Source: a virus (lineage: Duplodnaviria; Heunggongvirae; Uroviricota; Caudoviricetes). From it: a stretch of DNA of 15,370 bases. The stretch lies in the IMG/VR virus record IMGVR_UViG_2751185972_000002, one strand, 5' to 3'. Below the pieces are notes generated by a model that saw nothing but the letters and a program-made list of their open reading frames with translations, ran no database searches and was not told where the DNA came from. Below are positions 1-15,370 of the stretch, in pieces. A program made the position numbers and the translations under genes. The first letter of the stretch is position 1. Every line of letters begins with the position of its first letter.

Positions 1-705
1 AAGACCGCACGAATATAACGGTGGGTTCCCCCCAAACGAATCGGAAAATCGATACTGGAAAAACTCTAACTCGGTGGCCAGTTTTTGTTGACCACTTCAA
101 ACCGCAAAAAAGCGAACGTCATGCGCCCGGTGGAGTACCAGAACGGCGAAGCATTCACTATCCGTAACGTACAGGTTATGCCTGAATCCATTCCGGCTGG
201 CTTTAAGGCACTGGCTGACATGAGTCCGTTTGAATCCCTGCTGATTGTGGATTTGGGCGGAACCACGCTGGATGTGGCAAAGGTTCAGGGGCAACTGGCA
301 GGTATCAGCCAGGTGTTTTGCGATCCACACGTGGGCGTTTCTCTGATGGCCGATGCCGTACTGTCGGTGATGGCCACTAACGGTATGCGCACCAGTCACC
401 ACATCGCCAATACCATTATCGAACATCGCCATGATGAAGCCTGGCTGCGCCAGCACATCCACAATGACGCGCATTACGCCAGCCTGATGGCGGTAATTCG
501 TGAAAAGGAAGAAACACTGAAACAACGCGTGATCCGCGCGCTGGCGGTTTTTTCGGGTTACGGGCGGGTGATGGTTGTCGGTGGAGGGGCGGAGATTGTG
601 GCACCCGCTATCCGCGAAGCCTGCGGAGTTAATGCGACTTTCATCGCGGACGGGGTGCCACAGTTTGCTCTGGTTAATGGGCTGTACGCAATGGACAAGG
701 AGTAA
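1..705 (+). pseudogene. parM: ParM/StbA-like actin-type segregation ATPase; 5' end off-window and reading frame disrupted near 82-90
   Basis: ORF 85..705 (206 aa) aligns, by recall, with the C-terminal ~185 residues of plasmid R1 ParM (RKKAN, FTIxxVxVMPESIPAG, LIVDLGGTTLD, VMVVGGGAE). The same frame has stops at 16-18 and 67-69. Frame +2 is open from the window start to a TGA at 89-91 and reads ...FPPNESEN..., resembling the ParM segment just upstream. This implies a 1-nt indel around the T5 run 82-86. Confidence 0.55.
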
Positions 706-1084: not shown

Positions 1085-1675
1085 ATGAGCGAAATCAACT
1101 ATCAGGCATTACGTGAACGTTATTCACCTGTGCCAGTACCGAAATGCCCTATTTGCGGCGAGGAAATGTCAATTCAGCGAATATCTGGAGCACAGGTTGT
1201 TTATGCCTGCTCCGGTTATGGTGATGATGGAGATTTCAAAATTGGCCGAACTCTTGCTGACGAACATTATGAAAAATCACGCGTAACAGTGTTGGATGTC
1301 GGGGATCCTGAAGTATTGGCGCTACTTGATTGGCTGGAAACCAAAGACAACCGAATCGCTGAACTGGAAAAAATCGCCACTGACTATGCACTTAAATTCC
1401 AGAAAGCACAGGACGCATTAAAGCATGCCGCTTTGCTGCATAGCAGGACGGCGCAACAAACAAATAATTTTGCAGTATCGCTTCCGGACATAAGCGAATA
1501 TTTCATTAATGACGTATTTCAGCCCTTGCGATACGAGCGGGATGTTGAAAGAGCCATCATAAAGGCTGGCGGAAAAGCATTGTGGCAGGAGAAACACGAG
1601 GACAGAACGCATCAGTCATGCGATGTAAATTGTGGATGGTTTAGCCCACTGACGACAGATAAAAATAACACCTGA
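1085..1675 (+). CDS. hypothetical protein, 196 aa; N-terminal CPICG Cys motif plus predicted coiled coil; possible ead/Ea22-like relative
   Basis: Strong RBS AAGGAG 7 nt upstream of ATG 1085; clean 196-codon ORF. Visibly more AT-rich than neighbours. N-terminus (xINYQALRE) and LALLDWLE coiled-coil segment recall the ead/Ea22-like family of lambdoid prophages; this assignment is tentative and unsearched. Confidence 0.65.
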   Translation: MSEINYQALRERYSPVPVPKCPICGEEMSIQRISGAQVVYACSGYGDDGDFKIGRTLADEHYEKSRVTVLDVGDPEVLALLDWLETKDNRIAELEKIATDYALKFQKAQDALKHAALLHSRTAQQTNNFAVSLPDISEYFINDVFQPLRYERDVERAIIKAGGKALWQEKHEDRTHQSCDVNCGWFSPLTTDKNNT

Positions 1676-1687
1676 TCCCCCTCAAAC

Positions 1688-1713
1688 CAGGGCGATAATC
1701 GCACATCGCCCTG
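1688..1713. repeat. GC-rich palindrome CAGGGCGAT-(8 nt)-ATCGCCCTG 13 bp downstream of ORF 1085..1675
   Basis: Arms 1688-1696 and 1705-1713 are perfect reverse complements and share the CAGGGCGA/TCGCCCTG core with the hairpin at 1030-1047. Possible terminator or cassette boundary; no T-tract follows. Confidence 0.6.
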
Positions 1714-1714
1714 C

Positions 1715-1741
1715 TGCACAATAGTGCACAAATTTGCACAA
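1715..1741. repeat. Three direct TGCACAA heptamers spaced exactly 10 bp apart (1715, 1725, 1735); a fourth copy at 1807-1813
   Basis: Read directly: TGCACAAtagTGCACAAattTGCACAAttttttt. Helical-phase spacing suggests a protein-binding array (operator, iteron or centromere-like). Confidence 0.55.
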
Positions 1742-2112
1742 TTTTTTTGAACGAATTTTTGCCCTTCCAGCCCGCGTGGCGGCTGGATCCGTCAAGGATC
1801 CGTGCGTGCACAAAAAAACGCGCTTTTTCTGCGCGCAGGTGACGGGGGAACAGCCCGCGTTTCAGGGGGTAAATAGCGTTCCCTTAACGATGTCGCAGCG
1901 ACACGACAGAATGGCCGTATTTCTCACGCTGAGCGTGAAAAATACGTGAGGGATTCTGATTTGATGGGGTGAAAGGTAAGGCCGTCAAAATCGCACTGAG
2001 GCGGCGAGAACATGCAGTCAACGCGGTGGGATTGCGTAAGAGTCTGACCGTCGATGGTGGCGATAAACTGGAAGGCGTCGTGAAATTATCTGACTGATAC
2101 AGGAGCTGGAGA

Positions 2113-2141
2113 GTCGGGGCATAAATTTTTTATGCCCCGGC
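2113..2141. repeat. Perfect 11-bp inverted repeat CGGGGCATAAA-ttt-TTTATGCCCCG between convergent accessory genes and Q
   Basis: Arms 2115-2125 and 2129-2139 are exact reverse complements. Lies about 25 bp beyond the Q stop. May be a bidirectional terminator-like hairpin, but no flanking U-tract on either strand. Confidence 0.45.
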
Positions 2142-2165
2142 GAAGCAGCAGACAAGCGAAGCGCG

Positions 2166-3212
2166 TCAGGATGTGGGCTGGATGTCTAACAGTGCGTAAG
2201 GGTTAAAGCGGATCACCTCTTCGCCAAGCCAGTCATTGATGTGCTTCATGGCCTCCATGACGGGCATCAGCTCGTTAATTGCGTAAACCCGCGCGGCCTT
2301 CTCCACATCACCAAACGCACTTTTTTCACCCGGCATCGCCCCCATCAGTTGCGGCGGAACGCGGTGCGCAGCCAGCACATCATCACGGGATGCCGCCTTA
2401 ACATTCATGAACTCATCCTTTGCGGTGATCTGCTGGAACGGCAAAATTTGCACCCCCTCTTTGCCCCCGTTGGGCGCATGAATGAGCACGTTTTTAAACG
2501 CACCACCACCACGCGCACCCTGTAGCGTTTCTTTCAGGGAGTCCATGCTTTCGCGGTTTACCTGCGCGGCACCGATGTAGATGATGCACCCGGCGTGGGA
2601 TCCGTTGTCGTAATACAGTTTTCTGAACATGTCCGCCGAATGAGACAGGCTGGCCGAGAGTAATGCGCCGAGATATTCCGGCATGCCGTAGATTTCCTGG
2701 TTAATGTCAGGATTCATCAGGTGACACACTTTGCCTGGGCGAAACTGAAACGCATCCTTGCCATCCTGCACATACCTCCATGATTCAAGATCGCTTCCGC
2801 GTCGCATGTATTTCGCCAGGGCGTGCCGTAATTTAAGCGGTTCGCCGAGCATATTGCTTCGAAGCTCAAGGAATGCGTTACCGAACACAAACCAGTCCAG
2901 CGCCAGCGCCGAGAAATCCTGCCGGGAAAGCAGCGGGTGCGGGATGTAGCAACCGAGCAATACATTGCGCTTAAAATAAAGCGCAGACTGATGCCAGGAC
3001 GTTTGCCGGGCAGCTCTTGCCAGACCGTACCAGTCCACCGGGGTTTCATACCACCGCCCGTTATCAGCACAGTACATATTGTCCAGCAGGTCATGCCCGG
3101 TCAGGCGATAAGGACCATCAAATGTGAATGCACTGAGCGATGATTCTTTCCTGAGCGCATCAGCGAGATCAATGCGTGAACTCATGCGCACTTTTTTATT
3201 TTTTCTGCTCAT
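2166..3212 (-). CDS. Q: portal protein (P2 gpQ-like), 348 aa
   Basis: Length matches P2 Q (344 aa by recall). Immediately downstream of, and overlapping by 1 nt (TGATG), the terminase gene, as in the P2 P-Q operon. RBS GGAG 7 nt upstream of ATG at 3212. Confidence 0.88.
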   Translation of the reverse strand: MSRKNKKVRMSSRIDLADALRKESSLSAFTFDGPYRLTGHDLLDNMYCADNGRWYETPVDWYGLARAARQTSWHQSALYFKRNVLLGCYIPHPLLSRQDFSALALDWFVFGNAFLELRSNMLGEPLKLRHALAKYMRRGSDLESWRYVQDGKDAFQFRPGKVCHLMNPDINQEIYGMPEYLGALLSASLSHSADMFRKLYYDNGSHAGCIIYIGAAQVNRESMDSLKETLQGARGGGAFKNVLIHAPNGGKEGVQILPFQQITAKDEFMNVKAASRDDVLAAHRVPPQLMGAMPGEKSAFGDVEKAARVYAINELMPVMEAMKHINDWLGEEVIRFNPYALLDIQPTS

Positions 3213-4963
3213 CAGAACTCCATAACCGTGAAACGCTCGTTTTCTCCTTCGCCGCCAATCGGTTCGTTAATGACAGCAAGCATGGTTGCCCACGCAAGGT
3301 CGCCGTGGCTGATCCCCCTCGCTCGGTCCGTTTCGTAAGTGATAAAGCCGCCCGGTGTTTTCACCTTACGCACGGCGTTAAAGGCCGCGACCAGCTCGCG
3401 TTCGGCGCGATCGTATTCCCACCGCCCGGCACGCATTATTTGCAGCATTTTCAGTACCAGCGACCGTTTTGATGACAGCGTGAAGGTGTACGGAATAGCG
3501 GCAGGGAAAAACCGTTTCACTATCTGATAAACAGCCTCCCCGTTCCCGCCCGTCACATCAATGCCGATGTGTTCCACGTTGTAGCGACACGTGAACTCTT
3601 CAATGACTCTGGCCTGTTCTTCAAACTCCAGCCCCTGAACGCGTCGCGTCTCCACCGTTCGAAAACGGCCACCAGGAACAGACGGAGGAACCACCACGGA
3701 CACAGCGCCGCTGTCGCCGTTGCCACTGCTGCCGTTTGCGTCATACCCAATCCATACCGGACGATTCCCCATCGGGCGGGGAGCAAAAGGTTTCCAGTCT
3801 TTCCAGTCGTCGTATCCGTCAACGCCGCAGCCAATCAGGATATTCAGGTTAAATGCCGATTCCCCTTCGCGGACAAACTCACACATATAGAGATTGAGGA
3901 ACTCGTCTTCGGTGTTTTCATCACGAATTTCGTCGATATCGGTGTGTTTCCAGCCGTGATTAACCACATCTTCCAGCGTGACAATTTGCCGCCACGTCCG
4001 GTCAGGGCAGATAAGCCCGTTATGCAGCGTTTTCCAGTCCACAGAAAAACGCTGGCGTTTATGCGAGGCCTTTTTCTCGTTCCAGCGGTCGCCGTTCCAG
4101 TAGGCGTATGCCTCGTGCGTTTCGGTGGATGGCGTGGAGAAGTAGGTGCGCCGCAGTCCGCTGAGGGTTGCCATAGCGCCAGCCACCTTGCGCAGTTCAG
4201 CAAAGCGACTGACCCAGAAAAATTCATCAAAATAAAAATTGCCCGTATAGGACTGTGCCGACGCAGCAGAAGTGCCGAGAAAATGCAGCTCTGCGCCGTT
4301 GGAGAGGATGATTTTATCGCCCCCTTTCAGCTCCACATCAACTTCAGCCGCGGCCTTCTGAATAATGCTTTTAAACTGGAACGCCTGACGACGCGACGCA
4401 GACAAAAAAATCTGGTTACGCTGGTAAGGTTGCGCCACATCGTCACGCAGCGCCATCAGCAGTGCTTCCTGTGCAAAATACCAGGTCGCCCCAATCTGTC
4501 GGGATTTCAGGATCATCCTGTTACGTATCCCGGCTTCCCTGCAAAGGGTCAGGGAGTCAAACCAGCCCCGCTGATGCCACTCCAGCCTGCTGATGATTTT
4601 TTCCCGCAGTGCGGCAATCTGTTCCGGCGTGAAATGATTTTTGAGTTTTTTCGCCCGGCCTTTCTTTCCTGCGGCCATCACATCCGGCTGGCCATCATGC
4701 AGCTTTTTAAGCTGCCGGGTCAGCAGGTCTATTTCCTTAAAGTCACCGCCTGTTTTATTCTGTTTTTCAGTAAGCTGGATGAGGCGCGCATCGATGGACT
4801 GCGTGACACGCTGCCCGGGTGGCGTTTCATCCCACTGGTCACGTTTTTTCCACGCATAAATCGTGTTCGGGTTTATTCCCATCAGACGTGATATTTCTGC
4901 GGGCGGATAACCCTGCCAGTAAAGTTGCCGCGCACGCTGGCGCACAAAAGCGTCCTGAATCAT
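3212..4963 (-). CDS. P: terminase large (ATPase) subunit (P2 gpP-like), 583 aa
   Basis: 583 aa vs P2 P 590 aa. N-terminal helix-turn-helix-like segment (YWQGYPPAEISRLMGINPNTIYAWKKR) typical of P2-family terminase ATPase. RBS GGGGGAG 5 nt upstream of ATG at 4963. Divergent from O as in P2. Confidence 0.9.
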   Translation of the reverse strand: MIQDAFVRQRARQLYWQGYPPAEISRLMGINPNTIYAWKKRDQWDETPPGQRVTQSIDARLIQLTEKQNKTGGDFKEIDLLTRQLKKLHDGQPDVMAAGKKGRAKKLKNHFTPEQIAALREKIISRLEWHQRGWFDSLTLCREAGIRNRMILKSRQIGATWYFAQEALLMALRDDVAQPYQRNQIFLSASRRQAFQFKSIIQKAAAEVDVELKGGDKIILSNGAELHFLGTSAASAQSYTGNFYFDEFFWVSRFAELRKVAGAMATLSGLRRTYFSTPSTETHEAYAYWNGDRWNEKKASHKRQRFSVDWKTLHNGLICPDRTWRQIVTLEDVVNHGWKHTDIDEIRDENTEDEFLNLYMCEFVREGESAFNLNILIGCGVDGYDDWKDWKPFAPRPMGNRPVWIGYDANGSSGNGDSGAVSVVVPPSVPGGRFRTVETRRVQGLEFEEQARVIEEFTCRYNVEHIGIDVTGGNGEAVYQIVKRFFPAAIPYTFTLSSKRSLVLKMLQIMRAGRWEYDRAERELVAAFNAVRKVKTPGGFITYETDRARGISHGDLAWATMLAVINEPIGGEGENERFTVMEF

Positions 4964-5117: not shown

Positions 5118-5954
5118 ATGGCTAATGAAAAAAAGACATCCCGCAAAAAGTTTCGCGTGGCTGTCTCCGGATCAACTGTTGATGGCCGTGAAATCAGTCC
5201 GGTGCATCTGCGTGAAGCCGCCGAGAACTTCAACCCGGATGTTTACGCTGCCCGCGTGAACGTTGAGCACTATCTCTCGCCATGCCCGTCAAGCGAATTT
5301 TCCGCAATGGGCGATGTCACCGCACTGAGTACGGAAGAGATTACGGAAGGTCCGCTGGCCGGACGTACTGCGCTGTATGCAGAAATCGAACCGACCGAGC
5401 GCATGAAGCAGCTTGTTGCGGACGGCAAGAAAATCTATTCCAGTATCGAACTGCACCCGCAGTTCTCCGTTAACGGGCGCGCCTATCTGGTCGGGCTGGC
5501 GATGACCGACACCCCGGCAAGCCTGGGCACTGAGCGCCTGAAATTCACGGCACAGCAACGTCAGGCGGTGATGACGTTTAACAGTATCCAGGGTGAAGCG
5601 CCGCTTATCTCCGAAGCCATCGAGTCTGAAATCATCGAAATGGCAGAACAACGCCAGGAAGAAGGCACCCAGTGGTTTAACCGCGTAATGGGGATTATTG
5701 GCCGTGGCCGCAAAGCGGATGACGCCAGTTTTTCCCGTATTCAGGAAGCGGTGGAAGGCGTCGCAACGTCACAGGCCGACATTATCGACCGTTTTAATGT
5801 GCTGGAAACCCGCCATCAGCAGGACCGCCAGAAAATTACGTCACTGACCACAGAGCTGGCAGCACTGAAGGAAAAACTGCGCACGCAGGACGGCGATCCG
5901 CAGAACCGCTTCACCGCAACGGGCGCAGCCTCCGACCAGCTGGCCGACTTCTGA
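5118..5954 (+). CDS. O: capsid scaffolding protein (P2 gpO-like), 278 aa
   Basis: Start set to ATG 5118 (MANEKK...; RBS AGAGGGG upstream) rather than the track start 5085. Sequence KKFRVAVSGSTVDGREIS...YLVGLAMTDTPASLGTE parallels P2 gpO (FFRIGVEGDTCDGRVIS...YLVGLAVTDDPASLGTE, recall). P2 O is 284 aa. Confidence 0.88.
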   Translation: MANEKKTSRKKFRVAVSGSTVDGREISPVHLREAAENFNPDVYAARVNVEHYLSPCPSSEFSAMGDVTALSTEEITEGPLAGRTALYAEIEPTERMKQLVADGKKIYSSIELHPQFSVNGRAYLVGLAMTDTPASLGTERLKFTAQQRQAVMTFNSIQGEAPLISEAIESEIIEMAEQRQEEGTQWFNRVMGIIGRGRKADDASFSRIQEAVEGVATSQADIIDRFNVLETRHQQDRQKITSLTTELAALKEKLRTQDGDPQNRFTATGAASDQLADF

Positions 5955-5977
5955 TTAGACAAAGGAGCAAATTTTTT

Positions 5978-7029
5978 ATGAATCTGGTGATGTCAGATAT
6001 TACCCGCAACAAGCTGGGTTGCTATATGGCGCAGCAGGTGTCGCTTAATAATATCCCGGTATCTGCACTGGTGTCGCGATTTACCGTGGAACCCGCGGTG
6101 CAGCAGCGTTTTGAAAACGCCTCAAAGGAAAGTACCGAATTTACGAAAAAAATAACGTGATCGGCGTGACCGACCAGAAAGGCGAAAAAATCCTCCTGGA
6201 TACCACAGGACCGATTGCGCGCACGAATACCAGTTATGACGGCACAAAACGCCGTAACCCGAATAACGTGGTTGATCTGAAAAACCGCAAATATCAGTGT
6301 GAACAGGTGAACTACGACACGTTTATTTCGTATCCGCAGCTTGATGCCTGGTCGGCACACCCTGATTTTCAGTCCCGCATCAGCGCACAGATTGCCCGAC
6401 AGGTGGCGCTTGACCGCATCATGATCGGTTTCAACGGCACGTCTCACGCGGATGAGTCCAACTTCAGCACCAACAAGCTGCTTCAGGACGTTAACGTGGG
6501 CTGGCTGGAGCACATCAGAACCGACGCCAGCGAACGCGTTATGAATGACGTGACGCTGACCTCCCGCAACATGGACAACACCGTGGCGCACGCGGGTAAG
6601 TATGCGAACGCTGATGCACTGGTACAGGACGCGCGTTCATCCCTGCTGGATGAATGGCACAAGGAAGCTGACGACCTCGTGGTGATTATGGGGCGCAACC
6701 TGTTTAACTCGCTGCGTCTGCCCGTGCTGAACAGCATCAGCGGCCAGAATCCCAATGCGGAATTACTCGCCGGGCAGCTCATCCTGTCATCGCGCACCAT
6801 TGGCGGGCTGGGCGTGTTCCTTGCGCCGTTCTTCCCGGATGCAACGATGCTGATCACCTCGTTCAACAACCTGTCGATTTACTGGCAGAAAGGTTCAATG
6901 CGTCGCCTGATGAAAGACGAGCCGGAATACAACCGCATCGCCACCTACCAGTCCATCAATGACGCTTATGTCGTTGAAGACTATGGCAAGTGCGCGATGG
7001 TTACTGGCCTGAAGTTCGCCGACAGCTAA
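5978..7029 (+). pseudogene. N: major capsid protein (P2 gpN-like) with a 1-nt frameshift at the A7 run 6146-6152
   Basis: ORF 5978..6160 (60 aa; RBS AAGGAG; contains RFTVEPAV like P2 N KFTVEPSV) stops at TGA 6158-6160. ORF 6157..7029 (290 aa) continues the P2 N homology (KGEKI, MIGFNGT, VGWL, DLVVIMGR, LSIYW, DYVVEDY). Combined length ~350 aa vs P2 N 357 aa. Restoring one base at or next to the A7 tract gives a continuous ...EFTKKINVIGVTDQ... frame. Confidence 0.8.
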
Positions 7030-7038
7030 TCAACTCAC

Positions 7039-7057
7039 GGCGGGCATCATGCCCGCC
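7039..7057 (+). other. GC-rich hairpin GGCGGGCA-tca-TGCCCGCC directly after the capsid gene stop
   Basis: Perfect 8-bp arms at 7039-7046 and 7050-7057, 10 nt after the N stop and 18 nt before the M start. No U-tract, so more likely an mRNA-stability or attenuation element than a full terminator. Confidence 0.4.
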
Positions 7058-7074
7058 TGTAACGGAGAGCAAAA

Positions 7075-7875
7075 ATGATTACTCCTGCACAACAACACTG
7101 GCAGAACGTGATGGCACAGCGCGCAGGCCGGGCGAATGAAGGCGTGGACCACGCCGCGCGTACCGCGCATGAAGAGGTGCTGTATCGTCTGCGTCTGGCA
7201 CAGGCCCGGCTTAAGGGCGTACAGGCCAGAAGCGCGAAAGCCGCCATCAAAAAAGAGTTGTTGCCGGATTTTTCCGGCTGGATTGAGGGAACGCTGGAGG
7301 CTGACGGCGGGCAGCAGGATGAAGTGATTGCCACGCTGATGGTGTGGGCGATTGACTGTGGCGATCTTCCGCTTGCGCTGCGTATCGGCGCGTATGTAGT
7401 CCGTCACAACCTCATCATGCCGGATAACTTTGGCCGTACTGCTGCCACGGTACTGACCGAAGAAATCTGTAATCCGGTACTGACGCAGGCCGGGACGGAT
7501 GCCGACGCGGATTTGTCCGCCTTTATCGAACCACTGGACACCCTCCGGGAGATTGTCACCGACCAGGACATGCCGGACGAAGTGCGCGCCAAATTATGCA
7601 AAGCGTGCGCCTTTGCCCGCCGTGGCCTGAGTGATGCGGACAGCATGGCCCTGTCACTGAAGCTGCTGCGCGAAGCAATGCACCTGAACCCGAACGCAGG
7701 TGTGAAACGCGAGATTGCAACCCTTTCCCGCGCCCTGAAAAAAGCCGATTCCGCAGCCGAACCAGAAGACGCCAGCGCACAGCAGGCGCAGGACGAAAGC
7801 AGCAAAAGTAAAAAGACAACGCGGAAGCCTGCAACACGAAAAACCACCGCGACGCAGAAGGCGAAGCGCGGTTAA
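7075..7875 (+). CDS. M: terminase small (endonuclease) subunit (P2 gpM-like), 266 aa
   Basis: RBS GGAGA 6 nt upstream. Sequence KKELLPDF, DMPDEVRAKL and the basic K/R-rich C-terminal tail match P2 gpM (KKRELLPFW, DMPDEVRAKL; recall). P2 M is 247 aa. Confidence 0.88.
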   Translation: MITPAQQHWQNVMAQRAGRANEGVDHAARTAHEEVLYRLRLAQARLKGVQARSAKAAIKKELLPDFSGWIEGTLEADGGQQDEVIATLMVWAIDCGDLPLALRIGAYVVRHNLIMPDNFGRTAATVLTEEICNPVLTQAGTDADADLSAFIEPLDTLREIVTDQDMPDEVRAKLCKACAFARRGLSDADSMALSLKLLREAMHLNPNAGVKREIATLSRALKKADSAAEPEDASAQQAQDESSKSKKTTRKPATRKTTATQKAKRG

Positions 7876-7891
7876 CGACTGACCCCGTCAG

Positions 7892-7964
7892 CGGGCGGCG
7901 TGCGCGGTGTTCCAGTTTGACTCCGTGACCGTTTACACCGCGCACCCACCGCCCGATTTTTTTT
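7892..7964 (+). terminator. Long imperfect GC-rich inverted repeat followed by a T8 tract, immediately upstream of L
   Basis: Left arm 7892-7909 (CGGGCGGCGTGCGCGGTG) pairs with right arm 7936-7955 (CACCGCGCACCCACCGCCCG); 10-bp and 5-bp helices with a small internal bulge and a 26-nt loop, followed by TTTTTTTT at 7957-7964. Terminator or attenuator-like, but the loop is atypically long. Confidence 0.35.
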
Positions 7965-7978
7965 CAGGAGTGAACCCC

Positions 7979-8473
7979 ATGACTATAGTTGCCAGAACTG
8001 AACCCGGACCCGCAGAGGACGACATCACCGATACCGATGATGGCGATACCCGCATTTCAGCGGGTGCATTCTGGCCGGATATTGTGCTGCGCGAGCTGCG
8101 TCTGGCGGTACGACTGCCGGGGCGCGTGACCACCTCCCGCCTGCTGCATACTGCCACCGGGGCTGTGGCACACGTTACCCGCGAGCTGGAAGCATGGCAG
8201 CAGGAACAGCAGGCAGCTGGCCATCAGACGCTGGCCGATGTTCCGGCACCCGTAATTAACGGAGAAAGCGTCAATCTCTGGCACTGGCGCAATGCTGTTT
8301 ATACCGCCACGCGCGCCCTGATTCTGGAGCGTTATCGTGATGCAGACACTACGGACAAGGGCGACCGCCGGGCAGACGCTCTGGATATACAGACATCGGA
8401 TTTGTGGCGTGATGTGAGCTGGGCCATCTCTGACATTCTGTGCCGCCCGCGAATCTTTGCGGAGTTGTGCTGA
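7979..8473 (+). CDS. L: head completion/stabilization protein (P2 gpL-like), 164 aa
   Basis: Start set to ATG 7979 (RBS CAGGAG upstream); the track start 7907 lies inside the inverted repeat. Sequence DVPAPVINGESV...LERYRDADTTDKGDRRADALD...DLWRD parallels P2 gpL (recall). P2 L is 169 aa. Confidence 0.85.
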   Translation: MTIVARTEPGPAEDDITDTDDGDTRISAGAFWPDIVLRELRLAVRLPGRVTTSRLLHTATGAVAHVTRELEAWQQEQQAAGHQTLADVPAPVINGESVNLWHWRNAVYTATRALILERYRDADTTDKGDRRADALDIQTSDLWRDVSWAISDILCRPRIFAELC

Positions 8474-8673
8474 TGAAAGTGAAGGCACTGGAAGGCGACA
8501 CCGTGGATTCGCTCTGTTTCCGGTACTACGGCACGACGCAGGGCGTCACCGAAAAGGTGCTGGATGCCAACCCCGGACTCTGTCAGCAGGTATTTCTGGA
8601 CGCCGGGCAGGAAGTGGAGATGCCGGAGCCGGAGAAGAAGAAACGAGAAATGATTCAGTTGTGGGGGGAGTAG
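8473..8673 (+). CDS. X: tail protein X (P2 gpX-like, LysM-like fold), 66 aa
   Basis: ATG 8473 overlaps the L stop (TGATG). MKVKALEGDTVDSLCFRYYGTTQGVTEKVLDANPGL resembles P2 gpX (MKTFALQGDTLDAICVRYYGRTEGVVETVLAANPGL; recall). P2 X is 67 aa. Confidence 0.82.
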   Translation: MKVKALEGDTVDSLCFRYYGTTQGVTEKVLDANPGLCQQVFLDAGQEVEMPEPEKKKREMIQLWGE

Positions 8674-8675
8674 CA

Positions 8676-8999
8676 GTGAGCACCATTCAAACAGGGATCA
8701 CAGAGCAGGTTATTGCGTGGCTCTTTGACCACCTGCCAACGGTGTATGCAGTAGGCGCGGCGGTCAGCATTTCCGCGCTGATGAGCCTTTATGACGGACG
8801 AACACTGGTTCAGACCGTAACGGGATCGCTGGCGTGCGGCGTTCTTGCCATGGCCGTGGCCGGGTCGTTGCGCTTCTTCGGGTTTCCTGAAGATGCCGTG
8901 ACGTTTATCGGCGCATCAATCGGTTTTATGGGTGCAGAGAAAGCACGCGACAAGGTTATTGCGGCCTTTAATCGCAGGGTGAAGGAGAAGGACGAATGA
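8676..8999 (+). CDS. holin (putative), ~107 aa with hydrophobic transmembrane segments
   Basis: GTG 8676 is preceded by RBS GGGGGGAG and sits 2 nt after the X stop. Product has hydrophobic stretches (AVGAAVSISALM, LACGVLAMAVAGSL) and a charged C-terminus. Position between X and the endolysin matches P2 gene Y. The track ORF 8457..8999 is an in-frame upstream extension overlapping X. Confidence 0.65.
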   Translation: MSTIQTGITEQVIAWLFDHLPTVYAVGAAVSISALMSLYDGRTLVQTVTGSLACGVLAMAVAGSLRFFGFPEDAVTFIGASIGFMGAEKARDKVIAAFNRRVKEKDE

Positions 9000-13375: not shown

Positions 13376-15043
13376 ATGAGTACCACAACACGAAAATTTA
13401 AAACCATTATCACCGATACGGGTGCAAAAAAATTAGCTCAGGTAGCCGCGCCAGATGGTAAGCCTGTCCGCCTGACTCATATGGCCGTGGGCGACGGTGG
13501 CGGCACGTTGCCCACACCAGACAGTAAGCAGACCCGTCTGGTGCATGAGGTGTGGCGACATACTGTTAATCGCGTCATCCTGGACGCAACACATCAGAAC
13601 CGCATTATTGCGGAGCTGGTTATTCCTCCTGAAACGGGCGGATTCTGGATCCGGGAAATTGGTGTATTTGATGAGCACGGCGATTTAATCGCGGTGGGAA
13701 ATACTGCCGAAAGTTACAAGCCAGCCGTTGCCGAAGGGTCCGGTCGTGCACAAACATTTCGCACCATTCTGACCGTATCCAGCACTGCCACCGTGGCGCT
13801 TACCGTGGACAACACCATGGTGATGGCCACAGTGGATTACGTGGATGACAAACTGAAAGAGCATGAACAGTCACGACGTCACCCGGACGCCTCGCTGACC
13901 GCAAAAGGCTTTGTTCAACTCAGTAGCGCCACTAACAGCGTGTCTGAAACGCAGGCTGCAACACCGAAAGCAGTAAAGGCCGCGTATGATCTTGCTAACG
14001 GTAAATATACTGCGCAGGATGCCAGCACGACGCGAAAAGGCCTTGTCCAGCTCAGTAGCGCCACCAACAGCACGTCTGAAACGCAGGCTGCAACGCCGAA
14101 AGCAGTAAAGGCCGCGTATGACCTTGCTAACGCAAAATATACCGCTCAGGACGCCACGACGGCACAAAAAGGGATAGTCCAGCTCAGTAGTGCCACCAAC
14201 AGCACGTCTGAAACACTGGCCGCGACATCGAAAGCGGTTAAGGCGGTAATGGATGAAACGAACAAGAAAGCGCCCTTAAACAGTCCTGCGCTGACCGGAA
14301 CGCCAACAACGCCAGCTGCGCGACAGGGAACGAATAATACCCAAATCGCAAGCACGGCTTTCGTTATGGCTGCGATTGCCGCCCTTGTAGATTCGTCACC
14401 TGACGCACTGAATACGCTGAACGAGTTAGCGGCGGCGCTGGGAAACGCCCCGAATTTTGCGACCACCATGACTAACGCGCTTGCGGGTAAGCAACCGAAA
14501 GATGCCACCCTGACGGCGCTGGCCGGGCTTGCTACTGCGGCAGACAGGTTTCCGTATTTTACGGGGAATGATGTCGCCAGCCTGGCAACCCTGACAAAAG
14601 TCGGGCGGGATATTCTTGCGAAATCGACCGTTGCTGCCGTTATCGAATACCTCGGTTTACAGGAAACGGTAAACAGGGCTGGTAACGCCGTGCAAAAAAA
14701 TGGCGATACCTTGTCCGGTGGGCTTACTTTTGAAAATGACTCAATCCTTGCCTGGATTCGAAATACTGACTGGGCGAAGATTGGATTTAAAAATGATGCC
14801 GATGGTGACACTGATTCATACATGTGGTTTGAAACAGGCGACAACGGCAATGAATATTTCAAATGGAGAAGCCGCCAGAGCACCACAACAAAAGACCTGA
14901 TGACGCTGAAATGGGATGCACTAAATATTCTTGTTAATGCTGTCATTAATGGCAGTCTTGGAGTTGGTTCGACGAATGCGTTAGGTGGTAGCTCTGAACC
15001 GCCCCGGGAATCCTGGAGACTAAACTTCCTGAGAAAGAGGTAA
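13376..15043 (+). CDS. H: tail fiber protein (P2 gpH-like), 3' end replaced by an IS insertion; last 16 codons are IS-derived
   Basis: Near-identity by recall to P2 gpH over N-terminal and central regions ([58 protein letters not shown]..., [15 protein letters not shown]). Homology ends at about aa 540 of the 669 expected for P2 H, where the IS left end begins at 14995. The ORF then reads through the IS terminus to TAA 15041-15043. Confidence 0.85.
13904..14250 (+). repeat. In-frame 132-bp (44-aa) tandem repeat within the tail fiber gene, about 2.6 copies
   Basis: Units start at 13904, 14036 and 14168, exact 132-nt period, encoding [45 protein letters not shown]. The third copy diverges after KAVKAV. 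Typical phage tail-fibre repeat. Confidence 0.8.
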
Positions 15044-15370
15044 ACAGGATGACTAAAAATACTCGTTTTTCCCCCGAAGTCCGTCAGAGGGCGATTCGTA
15101 TGGTTCTGGAAAGTCAGGGCGAATATGACTCACAGTGGGCGGCAATTTGTTCCATTGCCCCAAAGATTGGCTGTACACCGGAGACTCTGCGTGTCTGGGT
15201 ACGCCAGCATGAGCGGGATACCGGAGGCGGTGATGGCGGGCTCACCACCGCTGAACGTCAGCGTCTGAAAGAGCTGGAACGTGAAAATTGTGAACTGCGC
15301 CGCAGTAACGATATCCTTCGCCAGGCTTCCGCTTATTTTGCGAAGGCGGAGTTCGACCGCCTCTGGAAAA
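14995..15370 (+). mobile_element. IS3-family insertion sequence (IS629/IS1203-like), left end; continues beyond the window
   Basis: Terminus begins TGAACCGCCCCGGG (IS3-family TGA... end) at 14995, exactly where P2 H homology stops. OrfA starts 54 nt inside. OrfA sequence matches IS629-group transposase OrfA by recall. Confidence 0.8.
15049..15370 (+). CDS. IS3-family transposase OrfA (helix-turn-helix / leucine-zipper subunit), 3' end cut by the window edge
   Basis: RBS AAGAGG upstream of ATG 15049. [107 protein letters not shown] matches IS629/IS1203 OrfA (recall). The window ends in the A-run where the IS3-family -1 frameshift site is expected. Confidence 0.88.

Follow-up and report, generated by a model that had tools for sequence, protein, structure and literature searches.

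The IS911 terminus and the parM remnant

The window, by which we mean the whole 15,370-nt stretch of DNA analyzed, opens on the plus strand with the right end of an insertion sequence (IS), followed by a 5'-truncated parM gene, two intact cargo genes and the structural genes of a P2-like phage. IS911 belongs to the IS3 family, has 36-bp inverted repeats and produces OrfA and OrfAB by programmed −1 frameshifting; a complete copy is about 1.25 kb long, contains a left inverted repeat (IRL), orfA and the frameshift site, and generates a short target-site duplication of 3–4 bp. Its last 99 bp occupy positions 1–99 and share 98 of 99 bases with the right end of the IS911 carried by Shigella phage SfII (L004 2001–2099), a copy that measures 1,250 bp in full. 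The element extends leftwards past the end of both the window and the contig. A sensitive blastn search with positions 1–140 recovered thousands of IS3-family copies (IS911/ISEc52) in Escherichia coli, with matches that span from position 1 to approximately 105–119 and never further, and in the alignment the similarity to IS copies ends at 99. We rejected ISEc52 as the identity of the element, as it matches at only ~91–95% compared with 97–99% for IS911 copies.

Within this segment, frame +2 stays open from the start of the window up to a TGA at 89–91, and positions 2–91 encode the C-terminal 29 codons of IS911 orfB (OrfAB transposase) and the stop codon. The peptide, RPHEYNGGFPPNESENRYWKNSNSVASFC followed by the stop, aligns with the ending ...RPHEYNGGLPPNESENRYWKNSNSVASFC of the SfII and pRM14721 copies of IS911 at 28 of 29 identical residues, and the annotated transposase CDS of pRM14721 ends at the base (L002 2091) that corresponds to window position 91. 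The right inverted repeat (IRR) covers positions 64–99 and agrees at every base with CTCTAACTCGGTGGCCAGTTTTTGTTGACCACTTCA, the oligonucleotide IRRb that was published as reproducing the 36-bp IRR of IS911 exactly (PMC2909936). The transposase stop codon falls inside the repeat, which ends in the terminal CA at 98–99. A run of five Ts (TTTTT, 82–86, plus strand) is intrinsic to the IRR, being unchanged in the published repeat and in all four aligned IS911 copies, and is not an indel site. The visible part thus resembles IS911 in its identical IRR, the terminal CA, the OrfB C terminus with its stop inside the IRR and the 99% identity to the SfII copy; it differs in that only 99 bp are seen and that these contain one substitution. 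This substitution, A to C at position 27 relative to other IS911 copies, changes L to F in the OrfB C terminus and creates a run of six Cs.

From base 100 onward, the sequence shows 99.5–99.8% nucleotide identity to the intact parM of P2-like prophages. A megablast search with positions 1–1100 against 5,426 complete E. coli genomes found 661 records with at least 80% query coverage (100–1100), and the best matches, at 99.6–99.8% identity, all begin at query base 100, within annotated intact ParM genes; the genes at these matches are "plasmid segregation protein ParM," then "plasmid partitioning/stability family protein," and then "ead/Ea22-like family protein." The intact parM of E. coli M8 is 960 nt long (L001 3647–4606), and base 100 of the window aligns with L001 4001, which is nucleotide 355 of parM and the first base of codon 119, in phase 0. 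The remnant (100–705, plus strand; identified with blast and Pfam) comprises codons 119–319 of a 319-aa actin-like plasmid segregation ATPase and its stop codon at 703–705. The translation of 100–702 is identical to residues 119–319 of WP_000686499.1 at 199 of 201 positions.

The C-terminal Pfam domain of ParM is complete in the remnant (1–159 of 159, E = 2e-69), whereas the N-terminal StbA_N domain is represented only by its positions 119–157 of 158; the intact relative has both domains. The intact relative also matches the structure of R1 ParM (PDB 1MWK) over its full length (E = 1.2e-92). The remnant is therefore related to R1 ParM through the prophage protein, with which it shares 99% of residues 119–319, but it differs from both in that the first 118 codons are replaced here by IS911 and most of the N-terminal domain is missing. 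The lost codons include those for the stretch DDGSTN, found at residues 6–11 of intact ParM, which we take to be the ATP phosphate-binding loop, as in R1 ParM. Because the first 118 residues, and with them DDGSTN and most of StbA_N, are lost, the remnant cannot be a working actin-like segregation ATPase. Judged by its coding content, parM is a genuine IS-truncated pseudogene, one that a mobile element has inactivated irreversibly. Together, the homologies indicate that a copy of IS911 interrupts parM in a P2-like prophage and that the window starts within this element, 99 bp short of its right end; we assign this reading a probability of about 0.95.

Reading frames across the junction

The sequence-only reading of this region had proposed a different structure, a ParM-like gene that enters the window in frame +2 and switches to frame +1 at the T run, either as a real pseudogene or through a homopolymer sequencing error. 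The position of the T run and the layout of the reading frames were confirmed when we reread the sequence: frame +1 has stops at 16–18 and 67–69 and is open from 70 through 705, and the downstream frame +1 product is indeed ParM, from base 100 on, as the Pfam and protein matches above show. The upstream half did not hold, as the frame +2 ORF is not ParM but the C terminus of IS911 OrfB (tblastn, 96.6% over 29 aa, E = 1.4e-16). Nor does the switch occur at the T run: the true discontinuity lies between bases 99 and 100, 13 bases downstream of it.

The alternative of one continuous ParM gene with a +1 or −1 indel in the five Ts, be it a real frameshift or a sequencing error, owes its appeal to the stop of frame +2 at 89–91 and the nearby opening of frame +1, both beside the run. 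As in homopolymer frameshift pseudogenes, two ORFs in different frames meet near the Ts; unlike in those, the ORFs come from unrelated genes, a transposase and ParM, and coding sequence of the same gene was not found on both sides in different frames, the upstream side being IS911. A tblastn search with intact ParM, suggested at the time as a way of placing the indel, matched only residues 119–319 at nucleotides 100–702 and placed no indel. For residues 1–118, the same search of the window at E ≤ 100 and word size 2 returned nothing meaningful, and no frame had ParM similarity upstream of base 100. The bases that precede AACCGCAAAAAAGCG in intact parM, ...GGACATGGCCAACATC, are unrelated to window positions 70–99, and the Ts belong to the published IRR. 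An alignment of five sequences places the switch from IS911 to parM at 99/100, and this discontinuity is, by homology, the border of two unrelated sequences, and no single gene changes frame there. We give the indel practically no chance and consider it, on the strength of the homology breakpoint, already refuted.

Of the two options offered previously, genuine pseudogene is thus nearer the truth, but a frameshift at the Ts is the wrong mechanism, as these are an invariant part of the IRR. Similarly, a disruption of ParM at around 90–100 was correctly perceived, since homology begins at base 100, but what changes there is the identity of the sequence, from IS911 to parM, and not the frame of a single gene. 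Adding or removing a T restores no ParM because positions 1–99 have no resemblance to ParM residues 1–118. As the frame +2 ORF is transposase and the T run part of the IRR, resequencing of positions 70–100 therefore cannot rejoin a ParM ORF, and the resequencing of the T run that had been proposed as the refuting test has no power to decide the matter. Such resequencing would be wasted effort, and the interpretation of the cargo locus is unaffected by sequencing error. The case also carries a more general lesson: the tail of a transposase ORF entering an inverted repeat can mimic the 5' half of a frameshifted host gene.

An example of the true homopolymer frameshift class is found elsewhere in the same window, in the P2-family major capsid gene (gpN, 5989–7029). 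The gene is split at approximately 6146–6157, frame 2 running from the ATG at 5989 to a TGA at 6157–6159 and frame 1 continuing onward to 7029. In comparison with the intact genes of phages 500465-2 and Shae_phiSM, a G-to-A change creates a run of seven As at 6146–6152 and a 1-nt deletion reduces TT to T at 6153. Here a homopolymer does adjoin a genuine −1 shift of frame, which may either exist in the genome or stem from a sequencing error.

Recurrence of the junction and the truncation of parM

Over 7,101 nt, the window matches a second IMG/VR contig (IMGVR_UViG_2751185970_000003) without any difference, and that contig stops at window base 1, inside the IS. An identical 41-nt junction occurs in Shigella boydii 600657 (NZ_CP049283.1), the only named record to have it, and in two more IMG/VR contigs, L007 and L008, which diverge from the window by approximately 0.3–0.4% and have a 3.4-kb deletion. 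None of the complete E. coli genomes has the junction, and exact-junction scans of genome and metagenome contig collections found none. GTDB merges Shigella into E. coli, and our guess is that a genome set with one genome per species holds no Shigella, which would account for the null scan.

Multicopy ISs are the usual breakpoints of short-read contigs, and the window does begin at a contig end within one, as is typical of such assemblies. It could be imagined that repeat collapse misjoined the tail of IS911 to parM at the contig end and that the true genome has an intact parM, but we regard such an artefact as very improbable: the same junction is found in three other assemblies, among them the long-read-like S. 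boydii record, L007 and L008 reach 443–736 bp further to the left into the IS, and the break falls exactly at the CA terminus of the element, which fits transposition and not a random chimera. Because it recurs in independent assemblies (S. boydii, L007 and L008), we conclude from the sequence comparisons that the junction is a real and inherited trait of a lineage.

We infer that the process started with an ordinary transposition of IS911 into parM. The element ends with the CA at 98–99, and from base 100 parM continues in phase with codon 119. A simple insertion predicts a left junction at which the IS911 IRL is preceded by ...GGCCAACATCAAC, with a 3-bp duplication of AAC. Both the left IS end and the first third of parM fall outside the window, and a search for the predicted left junction (parM ...CATC, 0–4 nt and the IS911 IRL) gave no matches in viral contigs.

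The related assemblies do not show a complete element: in S. boydii (L003/L005), L007 and L008, the IS911 piece is only 543 bp long, starting from position 708 of the IS, and in all three it borders on an IS1203/IS629-like element, at the right end of the latter. In these relatives, in contrast to the SfII copy, IS911 is thus a fragment truncated by another IS. Neither the S. boydii record (26.8 kb) nor contig L007 (12.2 kb) contains the replication gene A or the 5' portion of parM. At least in these three related assemblies, the locus was thus rearranged or suffered a deletion at a later stage.

Whether parM was lost by an IS-mediated deletion or rearrangement, and not by simple insertion, is more evenly balanced. 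Under this alternative, the 5' third of the gene, the repeats upstream of it and gene A would be gone from the prophage, as suggested by the IS911 fragment from IS position 708 with the adjoining IS1203/IS629-like end, by the absence of gene A and 5' parM from the S. boydii record and L007, and by the absence from the window of a pair of 35-nt repeats found upstream of intact parM. All records, however, end within IS copies, such that the missing parts may sit on other contigs, and an IS nested inside IS911 gives the same picture. We consider the deletion tentative, at somewhat less than an even chance.

Cargo genes and decay of the prophage

The two genes downstream of the remnant are intact and on the plus strand. 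The first, at 710–1021, encodes a 103-aa ParR/StbB-like partner protein (Pfam Plasmid_stab_B, E = 3e-23), the counterpart of which in E. coli M8 is annotated as "plasmid partitioning/stability family protein"; the second, at 1085–1675, encodes a 196-aa Ead/Ea22-like protein (Pfam Ead_Ea22, E = 2e-32). A search with PADLOC gave no defense-system matches for the ParM, ParR-like or Ead-like proteins, and the idea that the locus is a known defense system is unsupported. Compared with E. coli M8 (L001) over window positions 1456–2165, homology ends at 1455 and restarts at 1714 at only 93%. Because of this break, the ead-like gene is mosaic in its 3' part, as are its neighbors.

Directly before parM in E. 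coli M8, within the end of the replication gene A and just past it, is a pair of 35-nt direct repeats (L001 3507–3614) that lie 73 nt apart and each contain the palindrome CGGGAnTnnAAAATCCnG. The pair is a candidate for a ParR operator or a centromere, and the window has neither copy. Following the insertion, the parR-like and ead-like genes would be separated from their native upstream control region, intact yet cut off from it.

The hexamer TTGACC at 88–93, within the IRR, is likely the outward-facing −35 used in the IS911 circle-junction promoter, an assignment that we infer from the sequence. No matching −10 follows in parM, and a promoter scan of positions 1–1100 predicted no sigma-70-like promoter; a hybrid promoter with the −35 in the IRR and the −10 downstream is therefore unsupported. 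Read-through from IS911 or transcription from the IRR −35 could express a truncated ParM, starting from ATG at 121 or TTG at 85, along with the intact ParR-like and Ead-like genes, but we think this highly unlikely. If true, the decaying prophage would have gained a new function for its remnant locus, one under the control of the IS.

As a whole, the window represents a prophage of the P2-like type (Peduoviridae). Its minus strand carries, at 2166–4963, P2-type genes for the portal (Q) and the large terminase (P) (Pfam Phage_portal; Terminase_6N/6C/Terminase_5), and its plus strand carries genes for the GpO scaffold, the P2-family capsid, the small terminase, the baseplate and the tail fiber. 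The order in E. coli M8 is replication endonuclease, ParM, stability protein, Ead, portal and terminase, and the parM locus thus lies in the variable cargo region between the replication gene A and the portal gene Q. The same ParM cargo is annotated in the isolated phages Xuanwuvirus P884B11, P88 and Shae_phiSM; in these and in the E. coli M8 prophage, the ParM/StbB-like cargo has the same locus position and partner genes. Nothing in the locus is new: IS911 and ParM are known, as is the carriage of ParM by P2-like phages, and prophages of the Shigella type commonly contain IS insertions. In the literature, a search turned up only incidental mentions of ParM in P2-like prophages. The useful outcome is a corrected annotation, which settles how the left edge of the window is to be read.

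At the other end of the window, positions 14996–15370 contain the left end of an IS1203/IS629-like element of the IS3 family, beginning with TGAACCGCCCCGGG and including orfA with an HTH_Tnp_1 domain. From 14996 on, it truncates the tail-fiber gene H (13376–15043). With IS911 at the left and the IS1203/IS629-like element at the right, the prophage segment is bracketed by ISs. The prophage is decaying: its parM is truncated by an IS, its tail-fiber gene contains another and its capsid gene is frameshifted.

Lastly, the relatives L005, L007 and L008 lack the region corresponding to window positions 5599–8970 (3.37 kb), which includes part of the scaffold gene, the capsid and small terminase genes and the genes that follow. 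The alignments on either side of this gap overlap by approximately 13 bases, pointing to a deletion in these relatives that had short repeats at its ends.
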